From Escherichia coli (GTDB lineage Bacteria; Pseudomonadota; Gammaproteobacteria; Enterobacterales; Enterobacteriaceae): a stretch of DNA of 64,000 bases. Under the pieces are notes generated by a model. It ran no database searches. It was not told the origin of the DNA and saw nothing but the letters and a program-made list of their open reading frames with translations. Below, piece after piece: positions 15,465 to 53,732 of this stretch; position 1 is the stretch's first letter, and each line of letters starts with the position of its first letter. The translations under genes were made by a program, and so were the position numbers. The stretch lies in NCBI RefSeq assembly GCF_024298765.1, contig NZ_CP101210.1. The stretch is one strand, 5' to 3'.

Positions 15465-16115
15465 ATGCATCGTATAGACACGAAAACCGCGCAGAAGGAT
15501 AAGTTCGGCGCGGGTAAGAACGGTTTTACCCGTGGTAACCCCCAGACCGGCACGCCTGCCACCGATCTGGATGATGACTACTTTGACATGTTGCAGGAGG
15601 AGCTTTGCAGCGTTGTGGAGGCGTCCGGTGCCAGCCTGGAGAAGGGGCGGCACGACCAGCTGCTTACCGCGCTTCGTGCGCTGCTGTTAAGCCGCAAGAA
15701 TCCGTTTGGTGATATCAAATCGGATGGCACGGTGAAAACGGCTCTCGAAAACCTTGGTTTGGGAGAAGCGGCGAAAAGGGATGTGGGCACAGGAGAAAAT
15801 CAGATACCGGATATGTCAGCCTGGAAAAGAAATCCGAGTTCTAATCGCTGGAGAAAATTGCCTGATGGAACCATCATTCAAATGGGAATATCAGCATCAG
15901 GGCCATTAGGCTCACCTGTAAATATCACCCTGCCGATATCTTTCAGCAATACCAATTATTGTGTTGTTGCATCGTACGATAATGCACGGTCAGGTGTGTC
16001 AACAATGGTTAGTTTTGCAGCGTTACCTGTTTCACCATCGCAATTTTCCCTGATGTCATCTGTGACTGAGCAAGGAATAAATCCTTTTGCTTACTGGATT
16101 GCTTTTGGAGATTAA
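15465..16115 (+). CDS. Side tail fibre protein (constant N-terminus fused to currently expressed variable C-terminus)
   Basis: 216 aa; invertase crossover site lies inside the gene at 15742..15767 (codons for LENLGLGE); sequence after the site is noticeably more AT-rich. Confidence 0.75.
15742..15767. repeat. Invertase crossover site (left), gix/pix-like 26-bp site
   Basis: CTCTCGAAAACCTTGGTTTGGGAGAA; its 14-bp arm TTGGTTTGGGAGAA is the exact inverted copy of 17607..17620. Confidence 0.6.
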
Positions 16116-16118
16116 TAA

Positions 16119-16538
16119 ATGGATAGATACTTCTATTCACAAAAAGAAAATGGTTTTTTTACCGATTTAAATAAAGCACCTTCAGATGCTGTTGAGATAA
16201 CCACGGATGAATGGCTGTTACTACTGGATGGTCAGGATAATGGCATGAAAATAGTCAGCAATCAGGAGGGATATCCGGTTTTGACAGAGCAACCACCTTT
16301 ATCAAAAGAAAACCTTATTGCATTGGCGGATTTGAAAAAAAGAAAACTTATTAATGAAGCCAACGAGCACATGAACAGCAGACAATGGCCAGGTAAAGCG
16401 GCGATTGGTCGCCTGAAAGGTGAGGAACTGGCGCAATATAATTTGTGGCTGGATTATCTGGACGCACTGGAACTGGTCGATACTTCCGGTGCGCCAGATA
16501 TTGAATGGCCTACGCCTCCGGCAGTTCAGGCCAGATGA
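16119..16538 (+). CDS. Tail fibre assembly protein (expressed orientation)
   Basis: 139 aa directly after the fibre gene; AT-rich like the expressed fibre C-terminus. Confidence 0.75.
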   Translation: MDRYFYSQKENGFFTDLNKAPSDAVEITTDEWLLLLDGQDNGMKIVSNQEGYPVLTEQPPLSKENLIALADLKKRKLINEANEHMNSRQWPGKAAIGRLKGEELAQYNLWLDYLDALELVDTSGAPDIEWPTPPAVQAR

Positions 16539-17115
16539 CGTCCGGCGCGGTGCTGGTATCTGTTGCCGTCACCGCGTCAATGTAATCCAGCACAGCGTTA
16601 AGTCGGGTGTTTTCTGTCTGCATCAGCTTCCGCCCGGCCTGCAATTTCAGTTGAATCAGACTAATGGAAGCCATTGCAGTATCAATCAGTGACTGACGCT
16701 GTGCTTCTGCCGCGTCTACTGCGGCGCTATGCTGTGCCTCAGTATCGGTCACCCATTTCTCACCATCCCATTTATCGTATGGCGTTAATGGGGCGATAGT
16801 GGTTGTATTTTCAGGGTAATCACCCGGAACTGTGATTTCTTTGGTATCTCCCGTTTCGGTACTATAGACAACTTCACCGCGATGGTCTGGCACATATTCC
16901 CATGAATTTAAATCTACAGAGCGACAGATTGCATAACCAGCTTTATGTGTACCTGGTGCATCCAAACAGGAACATGCCGGGATACCGACGCCGACAGCGA
17001 GATATTCAGTTGATGTAGAAATATATTCCCGCGTTTCACCATCATAATTATAAACGGTAATATCTCCCGCTTTTATGGCAATGAGTTCGCTATTTAATAC
17101 AGCTTTATTCATCAT
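16510..17115 (-). CDS. Tail fibre assembly protein (alternative, expressed after inversion)
   Basis: 201 aa on opposite strand, converging on and overlapping the 3' end of the other assembly gene. Confidence 0.75.
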   Translation of the reverse strand: MMNKAVLNSELIAIKAGDITVYNYDGETREYISTSTEYLAVGVGIPACSCLDAPGTHKAGYAICRSVDLNSWEYVPDHRGEVVYSTETGDTKEITVPGDYPENTTTIAPLTPYDKWDGEKWVTDTEAQHSAAVDAAEAQRQSLIDTAMASISLIQLKLQAGRKLMQTENTRLNAVLDYIDAVTATDTSTAPDVIWPELPEA

Positions 17116-17632
17116 GCGGCCCTCACAATATAATTAAAAGCGATGTTACGAGGACGAGTTTCTGTACCTACATTTTCACTAATTTCACCATAACGTTTAA
17201 CACTACGAGAGCTAATAGCTCGTAGTGAGGAAGGCACCTTAAGACCGGGTTCGTCCGTTTTAACTATTCCCCCGTCACCGTATGTAGCCAGTATTCCTGG
17301 GTTTACTCCTTCCCGTGCACTTCCTGCGGCGAGTCCGTCCCCTGTCCATAATTCCATATAGTGTGCATGGTCCAAAATTGTGTGTGGCTGCCAATTAAGC
17401 AAAGCGCGACCAGTATCAATCCCGCGACCGTCATCCCAGCCACGAATAAATTCACCGCGTAAATCAGGCAATTTATTGGTCGGGTAAGCCTTTGCCAGTT
17501 CCGGGTATTCTTCAGCAGAAAAAGCCGCACCGTTGCATTTCAGCCAGCCTGTTGGCGGAGTGGCGGAAGGCCACGGAACAGGCACACCAACGGGTAATGC
17601 CGAACCTTCTCCCAAACCAACGTTTATGAAAA
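17112..17632 (-). CDS. Alternative tail-fibre variable C-terminal segment (silent in this orientation)
   Basis: Minus-strand ORF 17112..17660 reads through the right crossover site; contains the conserved fibre motif PWPSATPPTGWLKCNGAAF...YPELAKAYP; would fuse to the constant N-terminus on inversion. Confidence 0.65.
17607..17632. repeat. Invertase crossover site (right), gix/pix-like 26-bp site
   Basis: TTCTCCCAAACCAACGTTTATGAAAA, about 55 bp upstream of the invertase start. Confidence 0.6.
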
Positions 17633-17686
17633 TGCAGAAATAACGAGCAAATGGCATCATTCCTGCTTTTGTCAGGGAGATCTACC

Positions 17687-18241
17687 ATGCTTATTGGCTA
17701 TGTACGTGTGTCAACAAATGACCAGAACACAGATCTACAGCGTAATGCGCTGAACTGTGCAGGATGCGAGCTGATTTTTGAAGACAAGATAAGCGGTACA
17801 AAGTCTGAAAGGCCGGGACTGAAAAAACTGCTCAGGACATTATCGGAAGGTGACACTCTGGTTGTCTGGAAGCTGGATCGGCTGGGGCGTAGTATGCGGC
17901 ATCTGGTCATTCTGGTTGAGGAGTTGCGCGAACGTGGCGTTAATTTTCGCAGCCTGACGGATGCTATTGATACCAGCACACCGATGGGGCGTTTTTTCTT
18001 TCATGTGATGGGTGCCCTAGCTGAAATGGAACGAGAACTGATTGTTGAACGAACAAAAGCTGGACTGGAAGCTGCTCGCGCACAGGGACGAATTGGTGGA
18101 CGTCGTCCCAAACTTACACCAGAACAATGGGCGCAGGCTGGGCGATTAATTGCATCAGGCGTTCCTCGCCAGAAGGTGGCGATCATCTATGATGTTGGTA
18201 TATCGACACTGTATAAGAAGTTTTCGGTCGGAGATAAATGA
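17687..18241 (+). CDS. pin: Serine DNA invertase, Pin/Gin/Cin family
   Basis: MLIGYVRVSTNDQ active-site serine motif at N-terminus, C-terminal HTH; very close to e14 PinE as recalled; ATG at 17687 inside ORF-track 17651..18241. Confidence 0.9.
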   Translation: MLIGYVRVSTNDQNTDLQRNALNCAGCELIFEDKISGTKSERPGLKKLLRTLSEGDTLVVWKLDRLGRSMRHLVILVEELRERGVNFRSLTDAIDTSTPMGRFFFHVMGALAEMERELIVERTKAGLEAARAQGRIGGRRPKLTPEQWAQAGRLIASGVPRQKVAIIYDVGISTLYKKFSVGDK

Positions 18242-18298
18242 AACCGTAGCACGTCGTATGCAAGATCGTGCTGCGGTTTATGCTTATCACTTAAAGAC

Positions 18299-19117
<819 letters not shown>

Positions 19118-19478
19118 TCATTGCAAGGGCTCACAACCAGTAGTGTTGAGAAAACCATCGGAGAAATGAGGCTAAGCCTTTGAATTTACATAGTACAAAA
19201 AAGATACTTTTCCTCATAATGTGAGCTAATTTTATGTTTCGTTTGATGATTGGACCGGTCTCGAAAACCGTAGACACATAGTATGCGTTAATTTATGAAC
19301 AAACTACTTGTCTGCTGTTTTTCTGTCATTAGTCGTATATAGAATGATTCTCTATGCCTAACAAAGCATCACCAGTGCTAGATTACGTTGTAGTCACTGT
19401 TTAAATATCCAGATAAAACATTTCCTTCTGGGTTGAATGAGTGATAAAGTTTCACCCATTAGACCCCTTGGAGGAATT

Positions 19479-20912
19479 ATGTCTGAATTTGAAGTGTTGG
19501 CACAGCATCTGCTGAAGGAAGCCGAGGCGGAAGAAAAGCTGCGACAGGAAAATGATAAAAAGCTTATCGAGAAAGTGCTGGAAATCTATGATCAGAAGTA
19601 TGTGGCTGAATTACTGAGAAAAGTCGGAAAAAATGAGTGGAGCCGTGAAACCATTAACCGCTGGATTAATGGCAAGTGTTTACCAAAATCGTTGACTTCA
19701 GTAGAAGAGTCTCTTCTGCGTAAGATGCTACCAGAACCACCTGCAAACCATCCGGAATATGCTTTCCGCTTCATTGACTTATTTGCTGGAATTGGAGGGA
19801 TACGGAAAGGTTTTGAGGCCATTGGAGGCCAGTGTGTTTTTACCAGTGAATGGAATAAAGATGCTGTGCGTACATACAAGGCCAACTGGTTTAACGATGA
19901 ACAGGTGCATAAATTCAATCTCGATATTCGGGAAGTCACGCTGAGTGATAAAACCGATGTATTGGAAACGGATGCTTATGCATATATTGATGAGCATGTG
20001 CCGGATCATGATGTGCTTCTTGCGGGGTTCCCGTGCCAGCCATTTAGCCTTGCTGGTGTTAGTAAGAAAAACTCACTTGGTCGTGCGCATGGTTTTGAAT
20101 GTGAAGCACAAGGAACACTTTTTTTTGACGTGGCACGTATTATACGAGCAAAAAAACCGGCAATTTTTGTGCTGGAAAATGTCAAAAATCTGAAGAGCCA
20201 TGATAAGGGTAAAACTTTCAAAGTCATTATGGAGACCCTTGACGAGCTGGGCTACGAAGTTGCCGATGCTGCAGAAATGGGAAAAAACGATCCAAAGATT
20301 ATCGATGGGAAGCATTTTTTGCCTCAGCATCGTGAACGCATTGTTCTGGTCGGATTTAGACGAGATCTGAATATTCACAAGGGGTTTACCTTGCGTGATA
20401 TCAGTCGTTTTTATCCGGAACACCGCCCATCATTTGGTGAATTGCTGGAGCCTGTAGTCGACAGTAAATATATACTTACGCCAAAACTATGGGAGTACCT
20501 TTATAACTACGCCAAAAAGCATGCAGCCAAGGGGAATGGTTTTGGCTTTGGGTTGGTCAATCCTGAGAATAAGGAAAGCATTGCACGCACACTTTCTGCC
20601 AGATATCACAAAGACGGATCAGAAATTCTTATTGATCGTGGTTGGGATATGGCAACGGGAGAGGCTGACTTTATGAATGAGAGTAATCAGGCTCGTCGAC
20701 CACGCAGGCTGACTCCCCGAGAGTGCGCACGCCTTATGGGATTTGAAAAACCTGGAGGGAAACCATTCCGTATTCCGGTTTCAGATACTCAGTCATATCG
20801 GCAGTTCGGTAACTCAGTTGTGGTGCCAGTATTTGAAGCTGTTGCCAGACTTCTGGAACCCTATATCCTCAAAGCTGTTTCTGCTGATGCTGGTAAGACT
20901 GGGCAGCCTTGA
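19479..20912 (+). CDS. ecoRIIM: DNA cytosine-5 methyltransferase, M.EcoRII/Dcm type (predicted CCWGG)
   Basis: C5-MTase motifs [10 protein letters not shown] (I), [11 protein letters not shown] (IV), ENVKNL (VI), [10 protein letters not shown] (X); N-terminus [12 protein letters not shown] resembles M.EcoRII; 477 aa from ATG at 19479 with GGAGG RBS. Confidence 0.9.
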
Positions 20913-20918
20913 GAACAT

Positions 20919-20941
20919 CTCCCGGCCTTTTAAGCCGGGAG
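20919..20941. terminator. Bidirectional hairpin between convergent methyltransferase and endonuclease genes
   Basis: CTCCCGGC-CTTTTAA-GCCGGGAG, 8-bp stem, located in the 34-bp gap between the two stop codons. Confidence 0.5.
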
Positions 20942-20946
20942 TCAGC

Positions 20947-22161
20947 CTATGATAGTTCAGCGTAAAGCTCTATCAGCTCAGTAATGAATGCTCCGAGCGT
21001 TATTAATTCTTCTCTAACTGCTTCTGGGTATTTTTTATGTAAAGTTGATGGTACAACGAGTCTGACACCCGCATCTTTCATTTCTCGGTATTGTGCTGAA
21101 GAAACACCTTCTTGCAGTGTAAATAAATGTACCTGATGGATTTTATCTGCTTCATTCAGTATCTGACGCCAGCGATCTTTGCAGGTGGTCTTTACTGCCA
21201 GCATACGTAAGTTTTCTACAGGAAATTCAACGTTATGATATGCCTCTGCTGAAGGAAACAGGAAATCTGGTTTTTTATTACCTTCAGTAACTGCCTGAGT
21301 GGAGAAATGCCGTAGTCCGTGCTCGATAAAAAGCTTCTCTAGGTGAAGTTCAAGTGATTTGCCTGCCCTTGATTTACGTCGATTACTGACAGAGTTGGCT
21401 AATGCAATAAACTCATCTACAGAATCGAATCCTTTCTTAATAATATCAAGAACATGTAATTCCTCGACGAGTAGAAAAATATCATACTCGACACGCCGAC
21501 GGTCAATCAGTTGCTCATCTGGATCCTTGGAGTTTTTAGCATAATGGCCAGCAGCATATTGAATAATTTCGTTTCCAGAAGGAAAACGCTTCTTCCAGTC
21601 TTCAGGAATAACATATTTATGATTTACTGGAGTTTGCTGAAGAGACAATCCGCCCAAAATTTGTCCGGCAGGGCCGGAAATTAGGGTTCCAGGTATGATT
21701 TCGCCAATAGCAGACTCGATGATATCCTCTTCATCGGGATTGACGCAGACCCATATATCTACCTCGGAACAGTCAGTGTTCTGTTCGTTTAACCTGAAAG
21801 CAAGAATTGTGAGGGCTCCTGTATTTTCAGGGTTCTGTAATGGACTTCCTCTCCCCCAGCGCGTAATTCTTTTTTCGTTTCGGGTCTTACCAAAATAACG
21901 GTTGTTGTAATAAATTGCGCGTGCTTGGGTATCAGGGCAATCATGGGATGATACATGCGCAGTAAGGAAGACTGAAGGGTTCAGTTCGCGAGTATGATTG
22001 ATAGATGGAAAAAGCTTTTCAACGATATTTGAGGGGATATAAAGTCCGACCTGATGGCCACCTGTTGCGCCTGTGTCGTTTGCAGAAAGGCGTTTGATGT
22101 AGATAAAGTAATTCCCGCTTGCGATATCAAGCAGCCAGTTATGAAAAACCGACATATACAT
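20947..22161 (-). CDS. ecoRIIR: Type IIE restriction endonuclease, EcoRII-like
   Basis: 404 aa, same length as EcoRII; N-terminus MSVFHNWLLDIASGNYFIYIKRLSANDTGATGGHQVGLYIP closely matches EcoRII as recalled; convergent with the methyltransferase. Confidence 0.9.
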   Translation of the reverse strand: MYMSVFHNWLLDIASGNYFIYIKRLSANDTGATGGHQVGLYIPSNIVEKLFPSINHTRELNPSVFLTAHVSSHDCPDTQARAIYYNNRYFGKTRNEKRITRWGRGSPLQNPENTGALTILAFRLNEQNTDCSEVDIWVCVNPDEEDIIESAIGEIIPGTLISGPAGQILGGLSLQQTPVNHKYVIPEDWKKRFPSGNEIIQYAAGHYAKNSKDPDEQLIDRRRVEYDIFLLVEELHVLDIIKKGFDSVDEFIALANSVSNRRKSRAGKSLELHLEKLFIEHGLRHFSTQAVTEGNKKPDFLFPSAEAYHNVEFPVENLRMLAVKTTCKDRWRQILNEADKIHQVHLFTLQEGVSSAQYREMKDAGVRLVVPSTLHKKYPEAVREELITLGAFITELIELYAELS

Positions 22162-22237
22162 CCCTTTGTTAACATACAGTCAGGGTTAACATTTTTCCAT
22201 AGTTATAGATAAGCGGCTAGGAACTTAAGGGAAAAAC

Positions 22238-22263
22238 AAAAAGCCCGCATAAGCGGGCTTTTG
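22238..22263. terminator. Intrinsic terminator hairpin between ssrA and the endonuclease gene
   Basis: AAAAAGCCCGC-ATAA-GCGGGCTTTTTG with A/T runs on both sides. Confidence 0.5.
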
Positions 22264-22389
22264 TGTCACTCGAGAGCCGCGGCTCCTTTGCGTATCCTTT
22301 TTTATCTCCTCACCGTCTGGTCGGTGTCCTGCTGAGACTGCTAACTTCCTGTTTTTGTTGGTGTTGTCCTTACACCGTCCAATCATGAT

Positions 22390-22752
22390 TGGTGGAGCTG
22401 GCGGGAGTTGAACCCGCGTCCGAAATTCCTACATCCTCGGTACTACATGCTTAGTCAGTCTTTACATTCGCTTGCCAGCTGCGGACGGACACGCCACTAA
22501 CAAACTAGCCTGATTAAGTTTTAACGCTTCAACCCCAGGCAGGGCTTCCACGCGATCTCTTTTGGGTTTGACCTCTCTTGATCCCCGTCCTAAGAGCGGA
22601 GGCTAGGGAGAGAGGGCTCTAAGCAGGTTATTAAGCTGCTAAAGCGTAGTTTTCGTCGTTTGCGACTATTTTTTGCGGCTTTTTACGAGGCCAACCGCCC
22701 CTCGGCATGCACCTTGGGTTTCGCAAATCCCGTCGAATCCAGAATCAGCCCC
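22390..22752 (-). ncRNA. ssrA: tmRNA (SsrA), 363 nt
   Basis: Reverse complement matches E. coli tmRNA from GGGGCUGAUUCUGGAUUCGACGGG to CCAGCUCCACCA; tag reading frame encodes ANDENYALAA. Confidence 0.95.
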
Positions 22753-22966: not shown

Positions 22967-23449
22967 TTAACGGTGGGCGTTTTTCATGATACGCGCTTTA
23001 TCCACCTGCCATTCGCGTTCTTTGATATCTGAACGTTTATCATGCTGTTTCTTACCTTTGGCGACGCCGATTTTCACTTTGCACCAGGCATTTTTCCAGT
23101 ACAGGGAGAGCGCCACTACGGTATAGCCTTCTCGATTGACGCGACCGTACAATGAGTCCAGTTCGCGCTGGTTGAGAAGTAACTTGCGGGTACGGGTAGG
23201 ATCGCACACCACATGCGTGGAGGCCACAGCCATTGGCGTGATGTTAGCGCCAAACAGAAATGCCTCTCCGTCACGCAGAAGGACGTAGCTGTCGCTGATA
23301 TTGGCTTTTCCTGCACGCAGGGATTTAACCTCCCAGCCTTGCAGGGCAAGTCCCGCCTCGAACTCTTCTTCGATAAAGTATTCGTGCCGGGCGCGCTTGT
23401 TAAGCGCGATGGTCGCTGAACCAGGTTTATGTGCTTTTTTCTTCGTCAT
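22967..23449 (-). CDS. smpB: SsrA-binding protein SmpB
   Basis: 160 aa, matches SmpB; adjacent to ssrA. Confidence 0.95.
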
Positions 23450-32081: not shown

Positions 32082-32408
<327 letters not shown>

Positions 32409-40620: not shown

Positions 40621-40651
40621 CAATAAAAAAGGCCCCCCGATTTGGGAGGCC
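40621..40651 (-). promoter_or_regulatory. pheA attenuator terminator hairpin
   Basis: GGCCTCCCAAATCGGGGGGCC followed by U-run on the minus strand, between pheL and pheA. Confidence 0.6.
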
Positions 40652-40699
40652 TTATTGTTCGTCTTCGCATTCTGTTTCACACGACGAAACGCCTCCCAT

Positions 40700-40747
40700 T
40701 CAGGGGAAGGTAAAAAAGAATGCGAAGAAAAACGGTGTGTGTTTCAT
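40700..40747 (-). CDS. pheL: pheA leader peptide, MKHTPFFFAFFFTFP
   Basis: 15-codon Phe-rich ORF (7 Phe) directly upstream of the attenuator. Confidence 0.8.
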   Translation of the reverse strand: MKHTPFFFAFFFTFP

Positions 40748-40850
40748 GTTTGTTTCCTTAAGTGACTTTAGTACAGTACCCGTACTGTTTTCACGCTGTC
40801 AACAAAAAACGCGCCCGAAGGCGCGTTGGCGATACACTCAATATAAAGGA

Positions 40851-45484: not shown

Positions 45485-45546
45485 CCTAAAGAATCAAGAC
45501 GATCCGGTACGCGTGATTTTCTTTTCACATTAATCTGGTCAATAAC

Positions 45547-45576
45547 CTTGAATAATTGAGGGATGACCTCATTTAA
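45547..45576 (+). promoter_or_regulatory. sigma32 heat-shock promoter of clpB
   Basis: CTTGAAT (-35) and CCTCATTTAA (-10-like) upstream of clpB. Confidence 0.5.
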
Positions 45577-45613
45577 TCTCCAGTAGCAACTTTGATCCGT
45601 TATGGGAGGAGTT

Positions 45614-48187
45614 ATGCGTCTGGATCGTCTTACTAATAAATTCCAGCTTGCTCTTGCCGATGCCCAATCACTTGCACTCGGGCACGACAACCAATTCATC
45701 GAACCACTTCATTTAATGAGCGCCCTGCTGAATCAGGAAGGGGGTTCGGTTAGTCCTTTATTAACATCCGCTGGCATTAATGCTGGCCAGTTGCGCACAG
45801 ATATCAATCAGGCATTAAATCGTTTACCGCAGGTTGAAGGTACTGGTGGTGATGTCCAGCCATCACAGGATCTGGTGCGCGTTCTTAATCTTTGCGACAA
45901 GCTGGCGCAAAAACGTGGTGATAACTTTATCTCGTCAGAACTGTTCGTTCTGGCGGCACTTGAGTCTCGCGGCACGCTGGCCGACATCCTGAAAGCAGCA
46001 GGGGCGACCACCGCCAACATTACTCAAGCGATTGAACAAATGCGTGGAGGTGAAAGCGTGAACGATCAAGGTGCTGAAGACCAACGTCAGGCTTTGAAAA
46101 AATATACCATCGACCTTACAGAACGAGCCGAACAGGGCAAACTCGATCCGGTGATTGGTCGTGATGAAGAAATTCGCCGTACCATTCAGGTGCTGCAACG
46201 TCGTACTAAAAATAACCCGGTACTGATTGGTGAACCAGGCGTCGGTAAAACTGCCATCGTTGAAGGTCTGGCGCAGCGTATCATCAACGGCGAAGTGCCG
46301 GAAGGGTTGAAAGGCCGCCGCGTACTGGCGCTGGATATGGGCGCGCTGGTGGCTGGGGCGAAATATCGCGGTGAGTTTGAAGAACGTTTAAAAGGCGTAC
46401 TTAACGATCTTGCTAAACAGGAAGGCAACGTCATCCTGTTTATCGACGAATTACATACCATGGTCGGCGCGGGTAAAGCCGATGGCGCAATGGACGCCGG
46501 AAACATGCTGAAACCGGCGCTGGCGCGTGGTGAATTGCACTGCGTAGGTGCCACGACGCTTGACGAATATCGCCAGTACATCGAAAAAGATGCTGCGCTG
46601 GAACGTCGTTTCCAGAAAGTGTTTGTTGCCGAGCCTTCTGTTGAAGATACCATTGCGATTCTGCGTGGCCTGAAAGAACGTTACGAATTGCACCACCATG
46701 TGCAAATTACTGACCCGGCAATTGTTGCAGCGGCGACGTTGTCTCATCGCTACATTGCTGACCGTCAGCTGCCGGATAAAGCCATCGACCTGATCGATGA
46801 AGCAGCATCCAGCATTCGTATGCAGATTGACTCAAAACCAGAAGAACTCGACCGACTCGATCGCCGTATCATCCAGCTTAAACTGGAACAACAGGCGTTA
46901 ATGAAAGAGTCTGATGAAGCCAGTAAAAAACGCCTGGATATGCTCAACGAAGAACTGAGCGACAAAGAACGTCAGTACTCCGAGTTAGAAGAAGAGTGGA
47001 AAGCAGAGAAAGCATCGCTTTCTGGTACGCAGACCATTAAAGCGGAACTGGAACAAGCGAAAATCGCTATTGAACAGGCTCGCCGTGTGGGGGACCTGGC
47101 GCGGATGTCTGAACTGCAATACGGCAAAATCCCGGAACTGGAAAAGCAACTGGAAGCCGCAACGCAGCTCGAAGGCAAAACTATGCGTCTGTTGCGTAAT
47201 AAAGTGACCGATGCCGAAATTGCTGAAGTGCTGGCGCGTTGGACGGGGATTCCGGTTTCTCGCATGATGGAAAGCGAGCGCGAAAAACTGCTGCGTATGG
47301 AGCAAGAACTGCACCATCGCGTTATTGGTCAGAACGAAGCGGTTGATGCGGTATCTAACGCTATTCGTCGTAGCCGTGCGGGGCTGGCGGATCCAAATCG
47401 CCCGATTGGTTCATTCCTGTTCCTCGGCCCAACCGGTGTGGGGAAAACTGAGCTTTGTAAGGCGCTGGCGAACTTTATGTTTGATAGCGACGAGGCGATG
47501 ATCCGTATCGATATGTCCGAGTTTATGGAGAAACACTCTGTGTCTCGTCTGGTTGGTGCGCCTCCGGGATATGTCGGTTATGAAGAAGGTGGCTACCTGA
47601 CCGAAGCTGTGCGTCGTCGTCCGTATTCCGTCATCCTGCTGGATGAAGTGGAAAAAGCGCATCCGGATGTCTTCAACATTCTGTTGCAGGTACTGGATGA
47701 TGGGCGTCTGACTGACGGGCAGGGGAGAACGGTCGACTTCCGTAATACGGTTGTCATTATGACCTCTAACCTCGGTTCCGATTTGATTCAGGAACGCTTC
47801 GGTGAACTGGATTATGCGCACATGAAAGAGCTGGTGCTCGGTGTGGTAAGCCATAACTTCCGTCCGGAATTCATTAACCGTATCGATGAAGTGGTGGTCT
47901 TCCATCCGCTGGGTGAACAGCACATTGCGTCGATTGCGCAGATTCAGTTGAAACGTCTGTACAAACGTCTGGAAGAACGTGGTTATGAAATCCACATTTC
48001 TGACGAGGCGCTGAAACTGCTGAGCGAGAACGGTTACGATCCGGTCTATGGTGCACGTCCGCTGAAACGTGCTATCCAGCAGCAGATCGAAAACCCGCTG
48101 GCACAGCAAATACTGTCTGGTGAATTGGTTCCGGGTAAAGTTATTCGCCTGGAAGTTAATGAAGACCGGATTGTCGCCGTCCAGTAA
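45614..48187 (+). CDS. clpB: Chaperone disaggregase ClpB
   Basis: 857 aa from [11 protein letters not shown]; two AAA+ modules with Walker A GEPGVGKT and GPTGVGKT. Confidence 0.95.
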
Positions 48188-48629: not shown

Positions 48630-50171
<1,542 letters not shown>

Positions 50172-50239
50172 CCTTAAAGAAGCGTTCTTTGCAGTGCTCA
50201 CACAGATTGTCTGATGAAAATGAGCAGTAAAACCTCTAC

Positions 50240-50316
<77 letters not shown>

Positions 50317-50358
50317 AATTTGCACGGCAAATTTGAAGAGGTTTTAACTACATGTTAT

Positions 50359-50434
50359 GGGGCTATAGCTCAGCTGGGAGAGCGCCTGCTTTGCACGCAG
50401 GAGGTCTGCGGTTCGATCCCGCATAGCTCCACCA
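50359..50434 (+). tRNA. tRNA-Ala (anticodon TGC)
   Basis: GGGGCTATAGCTCAGCTGGGAGAGCGCCTGCTTTGCACGCAGGAGGTCTGCGGTTCGATCCCGCATAGCTCCACCA. Confidence 0.95.
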
Positions 50435-50608
50435 TCTCTGTAGTGATTAAATAAAAAATACTTCAGAGTGTACCTGCAAAGGTTCACTGCGAAGTTTTGC
50501 TCTTTAAAAATCTGGATCAAGCTGAAAATTGAAACACTGAACAACGAAAGTTGTTCGTGAGTCTCTCAAATTTTCGCAACTCTGAAGTGAAACATCTTCG
50601 GGTTGTGA

Positions 50609-53514
<2,906 letters not shown>

Positions 53515-53612
53515 ACAACGCCGAAGGTGTTTTGGCGGATAGAGAGAAGATTTTCAGCCTGATACAGATTAAATCGACAGGTCATAACGAGACGTGTTGA
53601 TAAAACAGAATT

Positions 53613-53732
53613 TGCCTGGCGGCCTTAGCGCGGTGGTCCCACCTGACCCCATGCCGAACTCAGAAGTGAAACGCCGTAGCGCCGATGGTAGTGTGGGGTC
53701 TCCCCATGCGAGAGTAGGGAACTGCCAGGCAT
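53613..53732 (+). rRNA. rrf: 5S ribosomal RNA
   Basis: TGCCTGGCGGCC...GGGAACTGCCAGGCAT, 120 nt. Confidence 0.95.

Follow-up and report, generated by a model that had tools for sequence, protein, structure and literature searches.

Near the 3' end of ssrA, the window (the whole 64-kb stretch of DNA that was analyzed) carries a methyltransferase gene (M) at 19479-20912 on the plus strand and an endonuclease gene (R) at 20947-22161 on the minus strand, which, according to the list of open reading frames, form a convergent pair separated by a spacer of 34 bp. The features of this region are as follows.

18299-19072, minus strand: PD-T4-3/CMoRE, a GIY-YIG type IV nuclease, cargo gene (PADLOC, PDB, Pfam).
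19397-19478, plus strand: conserved 82-bp region upstream of M, candidate promoter/operator.
19479-20912, plus strand: M, a C5-cytosine DNA methyltransferase of the M.EcoRII type, 477 aa (Pfam, NCBIfam, identity, motifs).
20913-20946, no strand: tail-to-tail spacer of 34 bp with a conserved hairpin (folding, five-allele comparison).
20947-22161, minus strand: R, a type IIE restriction endonuclease of the EcoRII family, 404 aa (PDB, Pfam, PADLOC, residues).
22190-22220, minus strand: conserved block upstream of R with a -10-like hexamer, TATAAC (22202-22207), candidate R promoter.
22239-22262, minus strand: strong intrinsic terminator downstream of ssrA (terminator scan, folding).
22389-22419, no strand: 31-bp attachment core, attR (right prophage boundary), identical to the ssrA 3' end (repeat in M37H).
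22390-22752, minus strand: tmRNA (ssrA).
22967-23449, minus strand: smpB.

Our data bear out the original prediction of an EcoRII-type restriction-modification (RM) pair. The open reading frame of M spans 19437-20912 on the plus strand; its internal ATG at 19479 is preceded by a Shine-Dalgarno sequence, GGAGG (19470-19474), and the RefSeq annotation gives the same 477-aa protein from this ATG. Both the canonical C5-MTase motifs and the M.EcoRII-like N terminus that had been ascribed to this protein were found, the latter as the Pfam domain DNA_meth_N (PF18284, residues 28-84, E 4.6e-26), which precedes DNA_methylase (residues 96-457, E 8.7e-78), and the former as motifs I (FxGxG, 102), IV (PCQ, 185, with the catalytic Cys186), VI (ENV, 233), VIII (QxRxR, 283), and X (GNSV, 444). 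M scores 927.4 bits against the Dcm-type NCBIfam model PRK10458 (NF007772; cut-off, 710), and the PDB entry most similar to it is Shigella Dcm (3ME5). It is 91% identical to the plasmid-encoded M.EcoRII, to which it is equal in length. From this identity, and from the small number of substitutions that separate the two proteins between motifs VIII and X, where the target-recognition region lies, we predict that M methylates the inner cytosine of CCWGG.

The endonuclease had been likened to EcoRII at its N-terminal effector domain, and this likeness holds but is not confined to that domain, as R matches the EcoRII structure 1NA6 over its whole length (residues 1-403, E 3e-243). R combines an N-terminal effector-DNA-binding domain (Pfam EcoRII-N, residues 18-165, E 5.5e-61) with a C-terminal PD-(D/E)XK catalytic domain (EcoRII-C, residues 229-393, E 4e-71) and is recognized by the PADLOC model REase_II (E 2e-234). 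Its true start is probably 22155, giving 402 aa; RefSeq places the start there, and the Shine-Dalgarno spacing is better than at 22161. Using the functional residues named for EcoRII in PMC2770665 (active site, readout, pocket, and effector contacts), we found all 27 kept in R. The PD-(D/E)XK core is free of inactivating changes, with Glu271, Asp299, Lys324, and Glu337 (4/4) at matching positions. Likewise retained are the CC:GG readout residues Asn260, Lys328, Asp329, and Arg330 (4/4), the pocket for the flipped base formed by Arg222, Glu225, Tyr226, Phe229, Arg265, and Ala266 (6/6), and the 13 EcoRII-N contacts to CCWGG, namely, Asn28, His36, Gln37, Tyr41, Arg81, Tyr85, Lys92, Thr93, Arg94, Glu96, Arg98, Thr100, and Arg101. 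By homology, CCWGG would be the target of both enzymes.

A 34-bp gap with an 8-bp-stem hairpin had been predicted between the two genes, and its size, its stem, and its folding in both orientations were all recovered. A U-tract, in contrast, is absent, as neither strand has a T-run beside the hairpin, and the terminator scan gives no call there. The stem pairs CTCCCGGC (20919-20926) with GCCGGGAG (20934-20941) around a loop of 7 nt, forming 8 pairs as plus-strand RNA (z -1.9) and, with G-U pairs, 10 pairs as minus-strand RNA (z -2.3). Across five alleles the stem is kept (95.6% of cells paired), while loop and flanks diverge; covariation amounts to one compensatory change from C-G to A-U in the five sequences, which is equaled by 103 of 500 shuffles. 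The hairpin may serve as a 3'-end structure in the two convergent transcripts.

Homology to the plasmid EcoRII cassettes begins sharply at 19397, and from there to 19478 the sequence is nearly invariant in five alleles, whereas farther upstream it is unrelated. This block contains an inverted repeat, CCAGA (19409-19413) and TCTGG (19427-19431) spaced by 13 nt, in addition to the Shine-Dalgarno sequence of M. Autorepression through the N-terminal domain has been published for M.EcoRII-type enzymes (PMC3874152), and the block is a candidate promoter/operator for autorepression of M. Upstream of R, the block CT(A/G)GC..TATAA(C/T)TATG(G/A)AAAAATG occurs both in the window and in four plasmid alleles, the sequence beyond it being unrelated, and it may serve as the R promoter. 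Because the promoter scan found no sigma-70 consensus upstream of M or R, these regulatory sites are proposed from cross-allele conservation only. The R gene is separated from the co-oriented ssrA by the terminator at 22239-22262 (10-bp stem with a T-run, -27.8 kcal/mol, z -5.0), which insulates it from ssrA transcription.

With respect to location, the cassette was correctly described as prophage cargo next to ssrA, since it lies inside the attachment core at 22389-22419. In the near-identical prophage of strain M37H, an identical copy of this 31-bp core lies at the opposite end, past the integrase (L004 19329-19359). PD-T4-3, M, and R are also found in a circular 43.7-kb phage genome, with the tail-fibre genes on one side and the integrase on the other. 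The cassette is furthermore present in prophages with differing structural modules, of both the siphovirus and the myovirus type. Direct or inverted repeats flanking the cassette, as a sign of transposon-like insertion, were not found. An Rfam scan of the window gave nothing in the cassette and, elsewhere, tmRNA, rRNA, tRNAs, a Phe leader, and known sRNAs; PADLOC gave no matches for the three genes that separate the integrase from attL in related prophages. We conclude that the locus is very probably an intact EcoRII-type (type IIE) RM system within the accessory region that a temperate phage, resident at the ssrA 3' end, carries next to its attachment site.

This allele was found in 260 of 5,426 complete Escherichia coli genomes by an allele-specific junction count; a count of 376 genomes mixes the allele with classical plasmid EcoRII. 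Searching for the junction of R with ssrA yielded at least 128 genomes, a lower bound compared with the 260 obtained by the allele junction, and in three carriers checked individually this junction aligns over its full length. The exact M and R proteins occur on at least 1,000 contigs. Relative to the plasmid allele, dN/dS is 0.033 for M and 0.048 for R (0.064 for the N-terminal effector domain of R), with a dS of about 1.65, at which synonymous sites are saturated. Since dN/dS is this low (0.03 to 0.05) at saturated synonymous sites, the prophage allele is an old lineage under selection rather than a decaying copy. Classical EcoRII is widespread among conjugative plasmids of enterobacteria (568 plasmid records at ≥80% query coverage and about 80% nucleotide identity). 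In the literature on EcoRII in connection with prophages, ssrA, or methylomes, we did not find the prophage-borne allele described; the methylome paper on the ST131 strain EC958 names no m5C enzymes other than Dcm and an Eco31I homologue.

Redundancy between the cassette and the Dcm of its host, as suggested by the original prediction, turned out to be the rule, because chromosomal dcm-vsr is present in 5,358 of the 5,426 complete E. coli genomes (98.7%), and Dcm is reported to neutralize host killing by EcoRII (PMC3874152). The absence of a vsr gene beside the methyltransferase likewise held up, as tblastn with K-12 Vsr found no Vsr-like sequence across the 64-kb window (best E 0.47); no vsr overlaps the 3' end of M, and the downstream gene is the convergent endonuclease. 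Since nearly all E. coli carry a chromosomal Dcm with the same target together with Vsr, the cassette needs no vsr of its own. Counting CCWGG sites had been proposed as a check, and here the outcome was negative: the prophage has 2.1 sites per kb versus 2.55 for the chromosome (observed/Markov-expected, 0.62 versus 0.76), which is no clear sign of avoidance and provides no independent signature of restriction pressure.

The cassette is a diverged copy of the textbook EcoRII system, and its mechanism is already well understood. By homology, M would add a 5-methyl group to the inner cytosine in both strands of CCWGG, and autorepression of its promoter, mediated by the N-terminal domain, is probable. 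R would act as a dimer that is auto-inhibited by its N-terminal domains; once these bind additional unmethylated CCWGG, the C-terminal domains would flip out the central A:T pair and cleave the DNA. Incoming DNA with several unmethylated CCWGG sites would be destroyed and methylated DNA spared, so that a lysogen, in which the cassette is presumably expressed, would restrict only DNA from Dcm-negative or under-methylated sources. With Dcm in nearly every E. coli, it is questionable how much the cassette protects against coliphages propagated on ordinary hosts; by the same token, gain or loss of the cassette should not kill the host.

This last point bears on the possibility that the pair is chiefly a selfish addiction module, in which a cell that loses the prophage is killed by leftover endonuclease, so that the prophage is retained. 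Postsegregational killing by EcoRII is documented (PMC3874152), and the cassette occupies the extreme end of the prophage, adjoining the attachment site. The same review, however, reports that chromosomal Dcm attenuates this killing, and given dcm-vsr in 98.7% of the genomes, at least 192 of the 260 allele carriers must have both. We therefore regard addiction as an unlikely main function. In a second scenario, which we consider less likely still, the lysogen expresses an intact R gene little or not at all, and the locus serves mainly as a second Dcm-like methyltransferase that protects phage DNA from hosts with EcoRII plasmids. This would fit the lack of a consensus promoter for R, the strong terminator between R and ssrA transcription, and the frequency of classical EcoRII on plasmids. 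Decay would be the expected fate of a silent gene, though, whereas purifying selection on R, including its effector domain, is as strong as on M, and the alleles share a conserved -10-like block ahead of R.

Drift to another specificity, for example, CCNGG as in SsoII/Ecl18kI, is highly improbable. R is 87% identical to EcoRII and thus differs at 13% of its residues (M differs at 9%), and the catalytic domains of Ecl18kI and PspGI combine very similar pockets with different central-base specificities (PMC2770665); nevertheless, both enzymes match R only weakly (E about 1e-4). Finally, the GC content of 40 to 46% over 19 to 22 kb (versus 53 to 59% for most prophage structural genes) and O157:H7 relatives of the prophage that lack the cassette, with homology stopping at 19273, might suggest a separate small genomic island between prophage and ssrA, outside the phage, but the attachment core lies beyond the cassette with its second copy past the integrase at the other prophage end, the circular phage genome includes all three genes, and no repeats flank the cassette, leaving this idea with next to no likelihood.

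Within the phage accessory region, the EcoRII-type pair and the neighboring PD-T4-3/CMoRE gene (PADLOC, E 5e-140; PDB 9U75, E 2e-171; Pfam LEM-3_GIY-YIG) constitute a small defence island. CMoRE cuts DNA containing 5hmC and glucosyl-5hmC and spares 5mC-DNA (PMC12923530), and, in 242 of the 260 allele carriers, its gene directly adjoins M. This opens the way for a hypothesis that we put forward tentatively and hold to be possible rather than probable, namely, that these genes are not chance neighbors and form a co-inherited 4.2-kb "cytosine-state" defence module (18241-22419) that moves with the attachment region between unrelated temperate-phage chassis and is selected as a unit. In such a module, the EcoRII-type enzyme would cut unmodified CCWGG, CMoRE would cut the hydroxymethylated or glucosylated cytosine DNA that escapes restriction, and 5-methylcytosine, as the self mark, would be spared by both. 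We did not find a pairing of EcoRII-type enzymes with CMoRE described in the literature searched.

As EcoRII is among the best-studied restriction enzymes, our analysis adds little to its mechanism. Its ecological value is modest: about 5% of complete E. coli genomes, ST131, O103, and O121 strains among them, have received an old, divergent EcoRII lineage through temperate phages, and the same site is already methylated in nearly all of these hosts. The locus also offers a natural case in which to ask what benefit a restriction system brings if nearly every potential donor already has the target protected, and whether a hydroxymethylcytosine-dependent nuclease at its side widens the range of protection. 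In strain engineering, DNA made in dcm-negative cloning hosts should be restricted by lysogens of this prophage.

Among known systems, the closest is plasmid EcoRII (PDB 1NA6/3HQF/3HQG; M.EcoRII), with equal protein lengths (404 and 477 aa), the same domain architecture, and all published functional residues identical. Four plasmid cassettes share the convergent order, the 33- to 34-bp spacer with a hairpin, and the conserved block upstream of M. The amino acid identities of 87% (R) and 91% (M) contrast with a nucleotide identity of only about 80%, which, together with the saturated synonymous sites (dS about 1.65), marks the prophage allele as a separate, old lineage. The two also differ upstream of the -10-like block of R, where the sequences are unrelated, and in their vehicles, the prophage allele being carried by temperate phages at ssrA and classical EcoRII by conjugative plasmids. 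Chromosomal Dcm-Vsr shares with M the methyltransferase subfamily (PRK10458), the DNA_meth_N domain, and the presumed target; unlike it, the cassette is mobile, and its M is 68.6% identical to K-12 Dcm, lacks an overlapping vsr, and is paired with an endonuclease. PspGI and Ecl18kI/SsoII (CCWGG/CCNGG; CCGG family) have a catalytic domain distantly related to that of R and the same base-flipping mechanism (PMC2770665), but their similarity extends over about 90 to 140 residues, and they lack the EcoRII-N effector domain and need no second site. Like other accessory defence genes of prophages, the cassette is attachment site proximal, follows the tail-fibre genes, and lies beside a validated antiphage nuclease, PD-T4-3/CMoRE, a placement that is mechanistically nothing new.

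Our analysis showed that the gene pair at 19479-22161, a predicted C5-cytosine methyltransferase gene (M) and a convergent endonuclease gene (R), belongs to the EcoRII family by all testable features, and we consider it very probably an intact EcoRII-type system. The originally predicted coordinates and lengths were correct, agreeing with the ORF list, the RefSeq proteins and the 34 bp between the two stop codons. The surrounding DNA is E. coli chromosome, many complete E. coli genomes being 100% identical to stretches of it, and from 22967 to 64000 the content is ordinary (smpB, ratA, yfjF, bamE, recN onward). The features of the window are as follows.

17651-18241, plus strand: Pin/Gin-like serine invertase
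18299-19072, minus strand: PD-T4-3, a GIY-YIG type IV nuclease gene (PADLOC, E = 5e-140)
19409-19431: inverted repeat CCAGA-N13-TCTGG, within the 82-bp block upstream of M
19437-20912, plus strand: M open reading frame (ORF list)
19479, plus strand: M start ATG, preceded by GGAGG at good spacing; 477-aa product
20947-22161, minus strand: R open reading frame (ORF list), 404 aa
22202-22207, minus strand: -10-like TATAAC upstream of R, in a block common to all alleles
22239-22262, minus strand: strong intrinsic terminator (z -5) between ssrA and the co-oriented R
22390-22752, minus strand: tmRNA, followed by smpB
40623-40748: pheA leader
45495-45633: sRNA RyfD
48630-53730: complete rRNA operon with tRNA-Ile and tRNA-Ala

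The RefSeq annotation of the cassette is correct, though generic. The M product is WP_001288444.1 (477 aa), and RefSeq starts R two codons later, at 22155 (WP_000110239.1, 402 aa), where the Shine-Dalgarno spacing is better than at 22161.

The endonuclease had been likened to EcoRII at its N-terminal effector domain; the likeness holds, but it is not restricted to that domain, as the match spans the entire protein. R aligns with 1NA6, the EcoRII crystal-structure sequence, over residues 1-403 (E = 3e-243), also matches the separately crystallized N- and C-terminal domains, contains the Pfam domains EcoRII-N (18-165) and EcoRII-C (229-393), and is matched by the PADLOC type II REase model (E = 2e-234). 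All 27 of the 27 functional EcoRII residues named in PMC2770665 are identical in R, namely, the active site (Glu271, Asp299, Lys324, Glu337), the CC:GG readout residues (Asn260, Lys328, Asp329, Arg330), the pocket for the flipped central base (Arg222, Glu225, Tyr226, Phe229, Arg265, Ala266), and 13 effector-domain contacts (Asn28, His36, Gln37, Tyr41, Arg81, Tyr85, Lys92, Thr93, Arg94, Glu96, Arg98, Thr100, Arg101). With these residues kept, the PD-(D/E)XK core was found free of the inactivating changes that had been named earlier as what would refute the assignment.

The methyltransferase has the domains DNA_meth_N and DNA_methylase, reaches 927 bits on NCBIfam's curated Dcm-type model (cut-off, 710), and carries the expected canonical C5-methyltransferase motifs I, IV (Cys186), VI, VIII, and X. 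It is 91% identical and equal in length to the methyltransferase of plasmid EcoRII cassettes, one of which encodes an endonuclease with just a handful of differences from 1NA6; M and K-12 Dcm share 68.6% identity. Few differences from M.EcoRII fall between motifs VIII and X, where the target-recognition region lies. Since the functional residues of R are kept and M is close to M.EcoRII, CCWGG specificity is strongly predicted for both enzymes. That the lysogen expresses the pair and restricts DNA is likewise a prediction.

The cassette had been proposed to be prophage cargo, and the att boundaries bear this out. The window's first 19 kb hold capsid genes, contractile-tail genes, and an invertible tail-fiber segment with the Pin-like invertase. 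In this segment (15465-18241), the constant tail-fiber part lies on the plus strand, with alternative C-terminal/assembly ORFs at 16119-16538 (plus), 16510-17115, and 17112-17660 (both minus). The 31 bp of the ssrA 3' end (22389-22419) recur past the integrase at the opposite end of the near-identical M37H prophage, which places the cassette within the att boundaries; a CP4-57-like second integrase comes after this far copy. Furthermore, NZ_CP081794.1, a circular 43.7-kb record labeled plasmid, is a complete phage genome in which tail-fiber genes are followed by PD-T4-3, M and R, and then an integrase. A lambda-like siphovirus-type prophage at ssrA likewise contains the 4.2-kb segment 18241-22419, along with the same genes on the integrase side. 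The myovirus-type prophage has relatives in O157:H7 that carry PD-T4-3 but no restriction-modification (RM) genes, homology stopping at 19273.

Within 22162-22419, the 228 bp from R to the ssrA 3' end, including a replacement ssrA terminator, move with the cassette. NZ_CP081794.1 (L011) encodes a different integrase and has a diverged ssrA-like core (32120-32200; TGGTGGGGGACGGAGTTGAGACCGCAG), while in NZ_CP104634.1 (L002, 4769-4797) the core is unchanged over 29 bp; the two records share the sequences that lie past the core. Although filed as a plasmid, the latter record is not one: it contains prophage-end genes together with the chromosomal pao and ecp genes, and resembles either a misassembly or a piece of chromosome. 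Beyond the window, at the other prophage end, three genes (products of 307 aa, 113 aa [STAS-like], and 209 aa) lie together between phage integrase and attL in M37H (L004, 17299-19187) and in another prophage with a different structural module (L007, 12616-14504); PADLOC matches none of them, and they may be additional cargo near the att site. M37H also has Kiwa genes (KwaA and KwaB-like; L004, 5316-6727), annotated between the Q antiterminator and holin, and thus the phage carries defense cargo at a second hotspot.

Of 5426 complete E. coli genomes, 260 contain the allele-specific M/R junction, with 261 chromosomal placements and 3 on records labeled plasmid; in public data, at least 1000 contigs encode exactly these proteins. 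Annotation was inspected for 27 carriers, and in 26 of them the cassette adjoins ssrA. A database search at ≥80% coverage placed the R-ssrA junction in 128 genomes, fewer than the 260 with the M/R junction and taken as a lower bound; it aligned over its full 701 bp in three independently fetched carriers, which may or may not belong to the 128. Hundreds of enterobacterial plasmids carry classical EcoRII, which is about 80% identical in nucleotide sequence.

Comparing the window allele with four plasmid cassettes (IncX1 E. coli, Pantoea, Enterobacter ludwigii, and Salmonella), we found a conserved unit spanning 19397 to about 22220. The 82-bp block upstream of M is nearly invariant and is preceded by unrelated DNA. 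Modification enzymes of the M.EcoRII class, EcoRII included, are reported to repress their own promoter via an N-terminal helix-turn-helix domain (PMC3874152), and we propose this block as a candidate promoter-operator; a promoter scan detected no consensus promoter in it. An in-frame ATG 14 codons upstream of the accepted M start (19437-19478) is open in all five alleles, and because this extension lies inside the conserved block, it may have been kept for a regulatory role and not as coding sequence. The hairpin in the 34-bp spacer folds in either orientation, as originally described, and all five alleles retain the stem (95.6% of cells paired; Pantoea shows one compensatory change, C-G to A-U), while loop and flanks diverge. 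It has no U-tract, however, and is not called by a terminator scan, so a role as a bidirectional terminator is no more likely than one as an mRNA 3'-end stabilizer.

The idea that acquisition is easier in a dcm+ host agrees with the literature, as a review reports that Dcm attenuates host killing following EcoRII loss (PMC3874152). Complete E. coli genomes with dcm-vsr number 5358 of 5426, which means that both must be present in at least 192 of the 260 carriers. The reported lack of an accompanying vsr extends to the whole 64-kb window, which holds no Vsr-like sequence, and poses no problem, as the host can supply Vsr in trans. As most coliphage DNA comes already protected, the system would be limited to DNA from Dcm-negative or under-methylated sources. 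The proposed count of CCWGG sites gave no signal of avoidance in the prophage by site density.

PD-T4-3 directly abuts M in 242 of the 260 carriers, and its product matches the E. coli O157:H7 CMoRE structure (PDB 9U75, E = 2e-171). PD-T4-3 was recently characterized as CMoRE, which degrades 5hmC- and glucosyl-5hmC-DNA and spares 5mC and unmodified DNA (PMC12923530). It is compatible with 5mC from M and Dcm and covers T-even phages that evade EcoRII-type restriction. CMoRE and the RM pair may be selected as a unit, though this is less likely than not.

Against a plasmid allele, the nucleotide identity of the cassette is only 79-81%, synonymous sites are saturated (dS, about 1.65), and dN/dS stands at 0.033 (M) and 0.048 (R); constraint is also seen in the effector domain of R (0.064) and at the N terminus of M (0.066). 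The cassette represents an old lineage that is sister to the plasmid system, with purifying selection on both genes, and not a decaying copy or a recent plasmid-to-phage transfer.

A literature search found no published description of this prophage-borne EcoRII allele. The EcoRII kind of system is already known; from textbook EcoRII it is set apart by a diverged lineage (87% [R] and 91% [M] protein identity, with saturated synonymous divergence), a vehicle that is a temperate phage at ssrA instead of a conjugative plasmid, and CMoRE as a neighbor.
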